Positions 1,538-3,392 of a stretch of 44,051 bases of DNA are shown piece after piece. Numbering within the stretch: position 1 is the first letter of the stretch; every line of letters begins with the position of its first letter. The stretch lies in sequence record PQ221054, one strand, 5' to 3'. This DNA comes from Escherichia phage Rao1. The notes beneath the pieces are model-generated. The model had not been told where the DNA came from, searched no databases, and worked only from the letters and a program-made list of their open reading frames with translations. The position numbers and the translations under genes are program-made.

Positions 1538-1747
1538 ATGAGAATCAAGATTATTGAAGTTGACATTGCTGATGGTGACGAACTTAGCCTTGCTGATTGC
1601 GGTTTCCAGGTTGGTGATATTGTTGATGTTTCCGGTAAGTATAAAGATGGTAGCTTATCAGTTCAGGCGATTCGTGATACTGATTTAGTAACAATCGGCA
1701 ACGAGATTAGTTTGCAAGAAGGCGAATACGAGGTAATTGAAGAATGA
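1538..1747 (+). CDS. Hypothetical small acidic protein (69 aa)
   Basis: ORF directly downstream of box P1. Confidence 0.5.
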   Translation: MRIKIIEVDIADGDELSLADCGFQVGDIVDVSGKYKDGSLSVQAIRDTDLVTIGNEISLQEGEYEVIEE

Positions 1748-1923
1748 GATTCCGACAATCAGAACCAAAACTTCAGGCTAACCACTCCGACGGCTACGCA
1801 ACATTCATCATTGCTCAGGCTTGCGGAATGCGTGACGAACCTCAAGTTCACACCATCCACTTAACAGAAGAGCAAGCTAGAGAACTGGCTTACGAAATTC
1901 TTGAGCAATTGAACAAGATTTAA
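1744..1923 (+). CDS. Hypothetical small protein (59 aa)
   Basis: ATG overlaps upstream stop (ATGA); below the ORF-track size cutoff; translated by hand. Confidence 0.35.
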   Translation: MRFRQSEPKLQANHSDGYATFIIAQACGMRDEPQVHTIHLTEEQARELAYEILEQLNKI

Positions 1924-1933
1924 GGAAAACAAG

Positions 1934-2068
1934 ATGCACACGGAACTTATGATTGACGAGGTTTTAGTTGAGGCTTTACCATGGTTGTTGTGGTCTCTGG
2001 GCTTCGCGATTATTTACATTATTTCGGCAGCCGTAGACGATGCTAAAACGCATTCTAACGAACTATAA
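1934..2068 (+). CDS. Hypothetical small membrane protein (44 aa)
   Basis: Hand-translated; hydrophobic core LPWLLWSLGFAIIYIISAAV. Confidence 0.3.
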   Translation: MHTELMIDEVLVEALPWLLWSLGFAIIYIISAAVDDAKTHSNEL

Positions 2069-2086
2069 TTTAAGGCATGCGATTAG

Positions 2087-2245
2087 ATGGATAACTACGA
2101 AAAACCAAGCCAGTGGGCTAAGAGAATGATGGATGATGCTGAGACTGGCGAGATTGCCATGATGTACTTTGAGTTAATGAATATCTGGAAAGAGCGTGAG
2201 GAAAAGCGTGGTCTAAATAAGGGCGAGGATAAGAAAAATGCTTAA
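2087..2245 (+). CDS. Hypothetical small protein (52 aa)
   Basis: Hand-translated ORF in a tightly packed run of small genes. Confidence 0.3.
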   Translation: MDNYEKPSQWAKRMMDDAETGEIAMMYFELMNIWKEREEKRGLNKGEDKKNA

Positions 2246-2396
2246 CACATGTTTATTCCCGAAATGTGATGAATTTGTTGAGGATTTAATCTACTTCAAT
2301 GAGAAATACGGTGACACGTTTGAGTGCGATGGCGATACAGACGAAGTATTAGCAACTTTTGATAGAGGGCCAGATGTAGACAGCACGAATAGCTAA
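2238..2396 (+). CDS. Hypothetical small Cys-containing protein (52 aa)
   Basis: Hand-translated; overlaps the upstream gene; its 3' end overlaps box P2. Confidence 0.3.
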   Translation: MLNTCLFPKCDEFVEDLIYFNEKYGDTFECDGDTDEVLATFDRGPDVDSTNS

Positions 2397-2423
2397 ACGT
2401 GACAGGCATTGATGCCATATAAT
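2382..2423 (+). promoter_or_regulatory. Conserved box copy P2 (variant AGCACGAATAGCTAAA) with TATAAT hexamer
   Basis: TAGCTA 2390-2395, 22-bp spacer, TATAAT 2418-2423; downstream gene 2453..2689. Confidence 0.5.
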
Positions 2424-2452
2424 CAACCAATCAAACAACGAGAGGGCAGAAA

Positions 2453-2689
2453 ATGTTCGGATTAGAAGATGCATACTTCAACGCAGTTAAGCACCAGGCT
2501 GACAAGCTGAACGACGAGTACGGAAAGTTGGGCGCAAAGAAGAAAGACGATAAAGTTGTCGCAGCACTGATTACTCAGGTTTGGGGTCCTGTGTCTACGC
2601 TAATTGCGAGGGATAAATTTGTGTGGATAGCTGGGTATAGAAAAGGTCGCGTTGACCACGATGGGAATGGGAATAGCCTTTATGAATAA
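2453..2689 (+). CDS. Hypothetical protein (78 aa)
   Basis: ORF with AGAGGG RBS-like sequence upstream. Confidence 0.45.
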   Translation: MFGLEDAYFNAVKHQADKLNDEYGKLGAKKKDDKVVAALITQVWGPVSTLIARDKFVWIAGYRKGRVDHDGNGNSLYE

Positions 2690-2918
2690 GATCAAGTCAC
2701 TAATGTTTAAGGTCGGAATTCTACATAAGCATAAATATAGATTATTCCGACGCATAAGTTGGTTTGAGGATTCGTATCAGGATGGGTGTAGGACAAAGCT
2801 AATCTGTACAGTTTGCGGGAAGATTGTTAACTCAAATGTTGACCTAATGGTTTGTAAAAGCACGCTGGATTTCGTTAGGTATGAAAAAGAGATTGCATCA
2901 CTGACAGGAAAGTATTAG
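2652..2918 (+). CDS. Hypothetical Cys-rich protein (start uncertain; in-frame ATG at 2682)
   Basis: ORF with CTVCGK...MVC cysteine pairs; overlaps the upstream gene. Confidence 0.4.
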   Translation: MTTMGMGIAFMNKIKSLMFKVGILHKHKYRLFRRISWFEDSYQDGCRTKLICTVCGKIVNSNVDLMVCKSTLDFVRYEKEIASLTGKY

Positions 2919-3089
2919 TATTTATCTCGTAGGCATACGAGCTAGCCAAGCTAGAACGGCGCACGGAGCGCAACACAAAGTCCATTGCTAATTAAGTAGC
3001 GTACATGGCAAGTTGGCCAAAGAGGATAAGGCGCAAACCTCAATAACCGGTCGAGAAACTCGACGCTGGAGGCGTAACCAGCAATCTTT

Positions 3090-3110
3090 AAATAGCGCAA
3101 TCGCTACTTA
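3090..3110 (+). promoter_or_regulatory. Conserved box copy P3 (AAATAGCGCAATCGCTACTT), orphan copy without a properly spaced -10, 8 nt upstream of the tRNA
   Basis: Box-like sequence read directly; no TATAAT-like hexamer at 22 bp. Confidence 0.4.
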
Positions 3111-3117
3111 AATATTT

Positions 3118-3193
3118 GTTCTGCTGGCGTAACAGGATAACGCAAAGACCTCCTAAGTCTTAGTTGCTGGTTCGAGTCCAGCGCGGAACACCA
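3118..3193 (+). tRNA. tRNA-Arg, anticodon CCU (reads AGG)
   Basis: Hand-folded cloverleaf: acceptor GTTCTGC/GCGGAAC (one GU pair), U8, D-stem GCGT/ACGC with GG in the D-loop, anticodon stem AAGAC/GTCTT, loop CTCCTAA (U33, CCT, A37), T-arm GCTGG-TTCGAGT-CCAGC, discriminator A, encoded CCA. Confidence 0.8.
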
Positions 3194-3209
3194 ATAAAGG
3201 AGATTCATT

Positions 3210-3392
3210 ATGTGGGATGTTAAGCTTTCAATCCGCTTAATGGGTCGAAGCTGTAAGAATTGTCAGCAAGAATTTATCGCGTCGGTTACCGCTGAGTCCT
3301 CAGAGGAAGCGGTAGCGAAAGTAAAGGTAATGTCTGGTGCCGACCCGGATTACCACAAATTCCTAGTAACTTACGTTCGTGAGCGAAAGTAA
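3210..3392 (+). CDS. Hypothetical small protein (60 aa, CxxC motif)
   Basis: ORF with AAGGAG RBS 7 nt upstream. Confidence 0.45.
   Translation: MWDVKLSIRLMGRSCKNCQQEFIASVTAESSEEAVAKVKVMSGADPDYHKFLVTYVRERK

Follow-up and report, generated by a model that had tools for sequence, protein, structure and literature searches.

Results

Eight small genes lie upstream of the terminase genes of phage Rao1

The region described here comprises positions 1538-3392 in the sequence of Escherichia phage Rao1 (PQ221054), the analyzed 44,051-nt stretch of which is referred to below as the window. On the plus strand it holds eight small open reading frames (ORFs), named o1 to o7 and o9, a tRNA-Arg gene, and, between o7 and the tRNA gene, a noncoding gap with a conserved leader, while promoters of a repeated type (P1 and P2) precede o1 and o6 (cf. 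Table 1). A megablast search of phage records with positions 1400-3500 returned four near-identical genomes, namely TR2 and TR3 (99.9% identity spanning 2.1 kb), CY1 (99.7%), and TR1 (99.2%), all of which are Drexlerviridae of the subfamily Braunvirinae, CY1 being assigned to Christensenvirus. By homology to these classified phages, the Rao1 window represents a Christensenvirus-like coliphage of the Braunvirinae. A more sensitive search indicated that parts of the region are common to 127 phage records. The small-ORF cluster lies in the left arm of the genome, 5' of the terminase genes, as in T1-like phages: it is followed by terS (start at 3515), an HNH endonuclease gene (4108), and terL (4617), and the gene order of the cluster matches the annotation of TR3, CY1, IMM-001, ACG-M12, Rtp, T1, and others. 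The run of same-strand small ORFs directly 5' of terS is closed by an intrinsic terminator, a layout annotated likewise in T1, MM01, and EC3a.

A preliminary description of this DNA, made from the sequence alone, had listed at least eight tiny ORFs with overlapping start and stop codons. All of them were found where it had placed them, and the overlaps are real: the start codon of o2 lies on the stop codon of o1 (ATGA, a 4-nt overlap), and both o4/o5 and o6/o7 overlap by 8 nt. With 1000 dinucleotide-preserving shuffles as the chance baseline, ORFs of at least 40 amino acids (aa) on the plus strand span 79.8% of positions 1538-3392, compared with a mean of 32.5% and a maximum of 71.3% in the shuffled sequences, none of which (0/1000) was as high. 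The ORFs were then compared codon by codon over 17 related loci. Each of the eight was intact in the relatives and showed an excess of substitutions at the third codon position (e.g., 79/74/300 substitutions at the three positions of o2 and 199/147/511 at those of o6), and the dN/dS values, all well below 1 and comparable to that of terS, are listed in Table 1. The preliminary description had named absence of conservation in any relative as the result that would speak against the cluster, and the 17-locus comparison revealed the opposite.

One might still argue that some or all of the ORFs shorter than 60 aa are chance open frames in an AT-rich spacer, since they fall under common ORF-calling cutoffs and neither o3 nor o5 belongs to a PHROG family. 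The likelihood of this is negligible, because each ORF is intact in divergent relatives (dS about 0.5-2) with a dN/dS of 0.06-0.30 and a third-position excess, and because Shine-Dalgarno-like motifs precede eight of nine ORFs, compared with a mean of 0.70 and a maximum of 4 in the shuffles. At the level of sequence evolution this explanation is already refuted, and the substitution pattern indicates that each of the eight ORFs is a genuine gene subject to purifying selection. In the case of o7, two start codons come into question (cf. Table 1); its homologues begin at the position of ATG 2682 in the alignment, and the 78-aa form is therefore likelier than the 88-aa form.

The view that several of these ORFs are unannotated is correct for an ORF track with a 60-aa cutoff, but not for the public records: the TR3 entry (GenBank PP069512) annotates all eight as coding sequences, that of CY1 skips only o5, which starts there with GTG, and homologues of the small ORFs are named in the records of Rtp, ACG-M12, and T1.

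The cluster is made up of core and accessory genes

Searches of the 17 relatives with tblastn found o2, o4, o6, and o9 in all of them (17/17), whereas o1 was present in 11, o3 in 8, and o5 and o7 in 6 each. Replacement cassettes in the relatives include an HNH endonuclease gene in IMM-001 and a 141-aa ORF in AN_ECEAS and ES. Judged from this gene content, o1, o3, o5, and o7 are interchangeable, patchily distributed cassettes. Two of the core genes reach across the whole family, with tblastn homologues of o6 in 608 and of o9 in 811 phage records, including Klebsiella Webervirus, Tempevirinae, and T1. The Rtp record already lists T1 gp59 and gp56 for rtp15 and rtp17, and the CxxC motif of o9 is conserved in its T1 homologue.

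This distribution bears on the claim that the entire cluster is an anti-defence or host-takeover island, each protein of which would neutralise a target of host immunity or housekeeping early. Such a role would suit small proteins that have no characterised homologues, four of which (o1, o3, o5, and o7) are patchy and swapped for other cassettes in relatives. It would also suit the strongly acidic character of o1 and o5 (net charges of -12.5 and -11.5), as known DNA-mimic inhibitors are strongly acidic too. Moreover, Drexlerviridae in the BASEL data vary widely, without a genomic feature to explain it, in their sensitivity to restriction and abortive-infection systems (PMC8594841). However, o2, o4, o6, and o9 were found in 17/17 relatives with a dN/dS of 0.02-0.2, and the family-wide presence of o6 and o9 is not what the turnover of an arms race would produce. 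Since Drexlerviridae are mostly very sensitive to restriction (PMC8594841), the BASEL sensitivities leave room for accessory counter-defence genes and are contrary to a core anti-restriction function. We therefore consider an island comprising the whole cluster improbable. The distribution of o2, o4, o6, and o9 fits conserved functions in the phage cycle better than arms-race genes, the accessory, anti-defence profile would fit only o1, o3, o5, and o7, and host-takeover or anti-defence roles thus seem plausible for the accessory half of the cluster only.

Database searches give families but no functions

Scans of all ORFs against Pfam, NCBIfam, and PADLOC gave nothing significant; in PADLOC, whose models cover defence and not anti-defence proteins, no ORF had a match at E up to 0.1. 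Full-length matches to PHROG profiles were obtained for o1 (E = 5e-23), o2 (9e-33), o4 (2e-12), o6 (9e-23), and o9 (1e-27), all of them families of "unknown function," while o3, o5, and o7 matched no PHROG profile. Large protein searches retrieved only close Drexlerviridae relatives carrying neither names nor Pfam domains: o6 had 6 matches in a word-indexed search and 8 in a full HMMER search of 1.84 billion representatives, o9 had 21, and the o7 profile had 28. Sequence and profile searches of the PDB with o1, o2, o6, o7, and o9 gave no credible match, and none to a solved inhibitor such as the DNA mimics Ocr and ArdA or T7 Gp2. The o1 profile did hit the repeat protein BurrH (E = 5e-15), but no individual stretch of this alignment was significant and the hit was rejected as an artefact of repeat summation. 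The expectation of the preliminary description that most of the ORFs would have no functionally known homologue was thus borne out, and its attribution of host takeover and anti-defence to the cluster as a whole found no characterised family to rest on. A literature search revealed no transcriptome of any Drexlerviridae phage and no proteome or functional study of these ORFs.

Three GenBank product names are misleading and can be dropped. The label "methyltransferase type 11" for o1, a protein of only 69 aa, had no Pfam or NCBIfam match at E up to 1 to support it, and probably stems from a 24-residue local similarity to PDB entry 3dh0 (E = 0.74). "DUF3667," assigned to o9, was not among the Pfam matches at E up to 1, the best of which were unrelated and below threshold. 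For the "transcriptional repressor" o7, no match was found in Pfam, NCBIfam, or PHROG, and a PDB profile search returned only a zinc finger at E = 1.4. Alignment of 19 members of the o7 family showed that H17, C42, and C45 are invariant and H15 nearly so (HxH...CxxC), a set that suggests a zinc knuckle-like element and would be compatible with zinc binding, though not diagnostic of a repressor.

Several other properties could be read from the sequences. A transmembrane helix is predicted at about residues 14-34 of o3 (maximum of 1.85 in a 19-residue Kyte-Doolittle window), flanked by acidic ends, and o5 has a conserved motif, YGDTFECDGD; the acidic o1 and o5 are presumably beta-rich. The AlphaFold2 model of o6 is a small helical bundle (pLDDT 82.9), for which a Foldseek search found no PDB fold match (E-values of 3.2 or worse). 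The predicted fold of o9 is beta-beta-alpha-beta, of the eL20/PurS-like (also called eL20/LX-like) alpha+beta type.

The box promoters are a general mark of the phage genome

The preliminary description was right to point out box promoters P1 and P2, which are copies of a repeated box, ATAGCACnnnTTGCTAAA, with 17 matches in the window compared with 2.07 expected. The copies share a tripartite geometry, in which about 20 nt, often folding into a hairpin, separate the box from a -10 hexamer, and about 8 nt separate the hexamer from CATCGAAACGA and a ribosome-binding site. Two flavours of the box occur, ending in ...CGAATTGCTAAA and ...CTTTTTGTTAAA. Relatives keep the P1 box, with the same geometry, 5' of their o1 homologues. 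Taken together with the overlapping reading frames, the small genes are probably translationally coupled behind box promoters of the sigma-70 type. A copy at 31476 lies on the plus strand between two minus-strand genes.

The box corresponds to a 21-nt intergenic direct repeat of phage TLS, aaATAGCACnnnTTGnTAAAA, whose function, in the available portions of its description, was left open between a stoperator, an enhancer, and an UP element (PMC11447400). As far as those portions allow the comparison, the P1 and P2 boxes have the same consensus as the TLS repeat, point along transcription, and stand about 75 nt before the start codon (box at 1463, ATG at 1538), and the number of boxes per genome (15-17) is similar. 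The Rao1 boxes as a set follow the consensus ATAGCACnnnTTGnTAAA and are intergenic, co-oriented with the genes, and located about 76 nt ahead of the start codon. Unlike the repeat in that partial account of TLS, they are set in a fixed tripartite geometry and come in two flavours.

When mapped on the TR3 annotation, the boxes precede the HNH-terL, head, tail, recombination, helicase, kinase, and lysis genes as well as clusters of small ORFs. As modules of all kinds are preceded by it, the box is a general promoter mark of the phage and not specific to early genes. The term "early-type," which had been applied to the cluster, thus loses its basis: a promoter that also stands ahead of the terL, head, tail, replication, and lysis modules is silent on timing.

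A conserved structured leader precedes the tRNA gene

The noncoding gap 5' of the tRNA gene contains a conserved element which had been overlooked in the earlier reading. This gap of about 200 nt (2919-3117) is conserved in 88 Braunvirinae phage records, none of which (0/88) annotates it. It is headed by a promoter of its own that is unlisted by a consensus scan, its TTGCAT matching 3 of 6 positions. This promoter region (2879-2921) also encodes the final dozen codons of o7 and its stop codon TAG, which supplies the first three bases of TAGTAT, and relatives without o7 retain the same promoter sequence. In T1, Nouzillyvirus, Webervirus, and Tlsvirus, the corresponding elements are a -35 sequence TTGACn, 17-nt spacing, and TAnnnT, with a shared CTGAyyGG motif in the spacer.

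The leader was present in every Braunvirinae locus examined, its 15-nt anchor motif ACGGCGCACGGAGCG (2954-2968) being located 131-335 nt 5' of the tRNA gene. Its modules have been gained, lost, and duplicated between relatives, with optional inserts between hairpins A3 and C1. Covariation in hairpins A1-A3 was scored over 20 distinct sequences of the 5' module, with slid partners and 500 shuffles as controls. In these hairpins, 98.2% of cells were paired and 5 of 19 pairs had changed on both sides, which gave a score of 0.219 as compared with 0.067 or less for slid partners; none of the 500 shuffles reached this score. For C1-C2, 98.0% of cells were paired, both partners had changed in 5 of 10 pairs, and the score was 0.462 versus 0.09 or less for slid partners, again with 0 of 500 shuffles reaching it. 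The z-score for folding of the leader with the tRNA was -2.87. These alignments indicate that compensatory base changes have maintained the hairpins of the leader.

Outside the Braunvirinae, a covariance model of the 5' module found syntenic matches in an intergenic site of BUCT-XGG-1 (29.8 bits, E = 3e-7), in Webervirus Sushi (14.5 bits, E = 0.008), and in Tlsvirus Stevie (8.7 bits), and also matched T1 between gp58 and gp57 (7616-7720 of the T1 locus; about 20 bits, E about 1e-4). The stem sequence differs in all four of these phages. The model had no match in Warwickvirus tonnikala, where the same site shows a TTGACA promoter together with a diverged form of the motif. Rfam gave no leader match at E up to 1 over positions 1-4700, and with permissive filters on 2900-3200 only sub-threshold chance matches of 13-16 bits appeared. 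Nothing similar was found in E. coli genomes, which argues that the leader is not host-derived. A 15-mer scan of IMG/VR returned 80 loci, 6 of which were real. Resemblances of C1 to CRISPR I-F repeats and of C1-C2 to type III antitoxin repeats were considered and rejected, as the sequences differ and the unit is not tandem. The leader is the one feature of the region that has not been reported before, and no annotation or Rfam family covers it.

Positions 3014-3041 of the leader comprise 28 nt that are 75% identical to 3125-3152, the region of the D-arm and anticodon stem of the tRNA. This insert, found in some relatives only, looks like a relic of tRNA turnover at the site, and relaxed ARAGORN runs over the leader gave inconsistent calls with no consistent second tRNA. 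Along with the gain, loss, and duplication of modules, the varying distance between anchor and tRNA gene, and the absence of an Rfam match, the insert could suggest that the entire gap is debris of repeated tRNA gain and loss plus a promoter, similar between phages through kinship only and holding no functional RNA. Furthermore, the identity of the 5' module between the window and its relatives (0.65-0.84) is no higher than that of o2 and o9 at all positions (0.78-0.90), and the notion of a leader surpassing the ORFs in conservation was dropped, since it is only level with the best of them and somewhat above synonymous sites. However, debris would hardly explain stems that change on both sides and yet stay paired in 98% of cells, with scores well above those of slid partners. 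Nor would it explain why even T1, Webervirus, and Tlsvirus, all lacking a tRNA at the site, retain the 5' module, and why in most comparisons this module shows a higher identity than synonymous third positions. Debris is accordingly an unlikely origin of the gap, albeit one to be kept in mind. The alignments lead us to conclude that, across the family, the 5' leader is part of the o9 transcription unit and that tRNA genes would have been inserted into it in some lineages.

The tRNA reads the commonest arginine codon of the phage

Codon use was counted in 74 nonoverlapping ORFs of the window, with 686 arginine codons in total. AGG, which is read by the CCU anticodon, was the commonest of these (164/686, or 11.9 per 1000 codons) and AGA the third (139/686, or 10.1 per 1000); both together make up 44%. 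AGG is strongly enriched in structural and late genes, e.g., in the genes at 10267-10875 (9 of 11 arginine codons) and 14678-17656, and accounts for 23 of 41 arginine codons in the tape-measure gene. Since AGG is the commonest arginine codon of the phage, the tRNA-Arg(CCU) fits a role in codon supply; the authors of the SU57 study proposed this for AGA. The Shine-Dalgarno sequence of o9, AAGGAG (3197-3202), begins 4 nt past the 3' CCA end of the tRNA, which suggests that tRNA processing and formation of the o9 mRNA are coupled and that processing should make the 5' end of the latter.

Most Braunvirinae have Arg-UCU at this site, whereas Arg-CCU was found in the window, in IMM-001, AN_ECEAS, and ES, and in Nouzillyvirus BUCT-XGG-1; Erwinia phage Snitter has an Asn-GUU tRNA at the same position. 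ARAGORN also detected tRNA-Arg in Rtp, IME253, IME542, ZL19, phiA2-1, AN_ECEAS, and BUCT-XGG-1, the records of which have no tRNA annotation. For Rtp, this result differs from the published statement that the phage has no tRNA (PMC8421802).

Sequences flanking the cluster

Upstream of the cluster, a 162-aa ORF at 454-942 matches Pfam DUF7174 (E = 7e-48) and phrog_4841, both of them families of unknown function. The next gene (984-1466, 160 aa, phrog_7327) has a C-to-A change at position 1072 relative to TR3, which converts codon 30 from TCG to the amber codon TAG. What remains is a stub of 29 aa, with a possible restart at GTG 1089 (125 aa); the change may be either a real mutation or a sequencing error. 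Near the left end, a long untranslated region contains (TA)n and (ATT)n simple repeats and, after them, a T-rich stretch (positions 140-235), and these repeats may be related to the genome end or a pac region. Downstream, the gene between terS and terL (4108-4614) is homing-endonuclease-like, has a second-flavour box promoter ahead of it (4036), and is missing from this position in several relatives.

Table 1. Positions of genes, promoters, and RNA elements in the Rao1 window, with dN/dS from the comparison of related loci
Feature	Position	Strand	dN/dS	Description
Promoter P1	1463..1506	+		Box ATAGCACGAATTGCTAAA at 1463-1480; 20-nt spacer with hairpin CGCCGGA-gaaa-TCCGGC; -10 CATAAT at 1501-1506; then conserved CATCGACAACACGA
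o1	1538..1747	+	0.16-0.33	69 aa; accessory; phrog_5684
o2	1744..1923	+	0.03-0.17	59 aa; Braunvirinae core; phrog_7411; rtp11 homologue
o3	1934..2068	+	0.06-0.28	44 aa; accessory; one predicted transmembrane helix
o4	2087..2245	+	0.12-0.28	52 aa; core; helical, charged; phrog_1312; rtp12 homologue
o5	2238..2396	+	0.14-0.30	52 aa; accessory; P2 box in its 3' end
Promoter P2	2380..2423	+		Box ACAGCACGAATAGCTAAA at 2380-2397; spacer hairpin GGCAT-tg-ATGCC; -10 TATAAT at 2418-2423
o6	2453..2689	+	0.02-0.18	78 aa; family-wide core; phrog_303; T1 gp59/rtp15
o7	2682..2918 (ATG) or 2652..2918 (TTG)	+	0.18	78 aa (ATG) or 88 aa (TTG); accessory; basic, pI 9.6
Leader promoter	2893..2921	+		TTGCAT at 2893-2898, 17-nt spacer, TAGTAT at 2916-2921; kept in all Braunvirinae; read from alignments
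Structured noncoding leader	2928..3117	+		Based on covariation, folding, and conservation
Hairpin A1	2942-2946 with 2950-2954	+
Hairpin A2	2959-2962 with 2968-2971	+
Hairpin A3	2980-2989 with 2998-3009	+
tRNA-like fragment B1	3014-3041	+
Hairpin C1	3050-3054 with 3060-3064	+
Hairpin C2	3065-3069 with 3078-3082	+
Hairpin D	3093-3097 with 3102-3106	+		In some phages
tRNA-Arg	3118..3193	+		Anticodon CCU (reads AGG), CCA encoded; ARAGORN; Rfam RF00005, 59.3 bits (threshold 29)
o9	3210..3392	+	0.08-0.22	60 aa; family-wide core; phrog_2919; T1 gp56/rtp17; conserved CxxC
Intrinsic terminator	3446..3468	+		GCCCTC-ttctt-GAGGGC, then TTTTTT; closes the module; annotated at the same place in T1, MM01, and EC3a
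terS promoter	3481..3489	+		Extended -10, TGgTATAAT, for the small terminase gene; sequence reading; also in relative L007; module boundary
terS	3515 (start)		0.05-0.14	For comparison
Tripartite box copies (about 15)	1463, 2380, 4036, 10207, 13486, 26300(-), 27092(-), 28744, 31476, 32999, 35490, 37830, 39040, 43101(-), 43911(-)			(-), minus strand
Unannotated tRNA-Arg genes in relatives	887-963 of locus L019 (Rtp, AM156909); loci L008, L009, L013, L014, L004, and L107			ARAGORN

Discussion

The cluster is a known and already annotated module of T1-like phages, with genes deposited under hypothetical names; it was observed correctly, and its biology is ordinary. The reading to which we lean is that it represents the distal part of the T1-like left-arm small-gene region, organised in three units transcribed by the host RNA polymerase and combining small binding proteins, a tRNA supply, and a structured leader. 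No RNA polymerase or sigma factor is encoded by the T1-like phages themselves (PMC11447400, PMC7718038). According to this proposal, P1 would direct plus-strand transcription of o1-o2-o3-o4-o5 by the host RNA polymerase, P2 that of o6-o7, and the leader promoter that of the leader of about 190 nt, the tRNA, and o9, ending at the terminator, and overlapping stop and start codons would couple translation within the units. The protein products, being too small for enzymes, would most likely act by binding host or phage macromolecules before packaging. The four core genes would probably serve conserved steps of the programme, such as host shut-off or regulation, and the four accessory cassettes would probably adapt the phage to individual hosts or defences. 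The tRNA would be produced ahead of the AGG-rich structural genes and sustain their translation, and the leader would form the structured, strongly transcribed 5' part of the o9 unit, where several lineages have acquired tRNA genes by insertion.

Several points weigh against this proposal. The action of the cluster before packaging is something that we infer, and as the box promoter stands ahead of late genes as well, the word "early" is an assumption. None of the eight proteins had a characterised homologue in family libraries, among PDB sequences, or in fold searches. AGG and AGA are rare codons in E. coli, and the frequency of AGG, about 1-2 per 1000, is a general figure and not one from a computed host table. 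As for the leader, its matches outside the Braunvirinae are weak (14-30 bits) with only roughly calibrated E-values, and the covariation comes from 3-4 stem variants per hairpin among related sequences, i.e., from few independent haplotypes, so that a conserved site at the DNA level, instead of an RNA element, retains some residual probability.

A different role could be assigned to the core genes beside the terminase, above all to o9, if they were factors of packaging or late control and the leader-o9 unit regulated read-through of the terminator into terS and terL. In every subfamily examined, the unit that directly precedes the terminator and terS indeed contains o9, placed at its end or followed by one small ORF. 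This unit has a unique family-wide promoter and a structured leader. However, o9 is set apart from terS by a terminator as well as a separate promoter, the late modules have box promoters of their own, for which read-through is not obviously needed, and no RNA- or DNA-binding motif was identified. We regard this role as doubtful, more so than that of a cluster-wide defence island. A bolder and still less probable idea concerns positions 2893-3117, which might constitute a new family-wide cis-acting regulatory RNA of the last pre-packaging unit that either controls read-through of the terminator at 3446-3468 into terS/terL or forms an autoregulatory loop bound by o9, and which would also be a preferred landing site of the Arg-UCU, Arg-CCU, and Asn-GUU tRNA genes. 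If the leader were regulatory, it would provide a first handle on the switch of this family to packaging and late genes.

The division into core and accessory genes gives a direction to further work, as o1, o3, o5, and o7 become candidates for host-range or anti-defence functions, and o2, o4, o6, and o9 candidates for the essential programme. The seemingly empty spacer, which appears to be a conserved, structured, and separately promoted RNA, is the element that deserves follow-up.

The closest parallels to the cluster are the left arms of other T1-like phages. Those of Rtp (rtp1-rtp17), T1 (ORFs 77-55), and ACG-M12 (gp1-13) occupy the same position 5' of terS and are closed by a terminator, and T1-like left arms share with Rao1 their orientation and the dense packing of 40-80-aa ORFs. 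Based on tblastn and annotation notes, o2 corresponds directly to rtp11, o4 to rtp12, o6 to rtp15 and T1 gp59, and o9 to rtp17 and T1 gp56. Rao1 differs in possessing the o1, o3, o5, and o7 cassettes, which are missing from many relatives, and in its anticodon, which is CCU instead of the UCU of most Braunvirinae, while T1 has no tRNA at the site and clearly shares only o6 and o9 with Rao1. Like other phage tRNAs that offset codons rare in the host, the Rao1 tRNA reads a codon, AGG, that is rare in E. coli and common in the phage; unlike them, it is embedded in a long structured leader and immediately precedes a protein gene.

For the leader itself, two more distant systems offer analogies. 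In the lambda PR'-qut-6S RNA-tR' region and the put RNA of HK022, a conserved promoter, an initial transcribed region, stem-loops, and a terminator likewise precede packaging or late genes. Rao1 differs from these lambdoid leaders in that no sequence similarity exists, no Q-like protein was identified, a tRNA and a protein gene lie between leader and terminator, and the late modules have their own promoters, so the relationship would be one of analogy and not of membership. The species 1 and 2 RNAs of phage T4 are stable small RNAs cotranscribed with a multi-tRNA cluster, and the Rao1 leader may be compared with them as a structured noncoding RNA transcribed with a phage tRNA and presumably freed by tRNA processing. 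It differs from the T4 RNAs in having no sequence relationship to them and in that its 5' part also occurs in relatives that have no tRNA.

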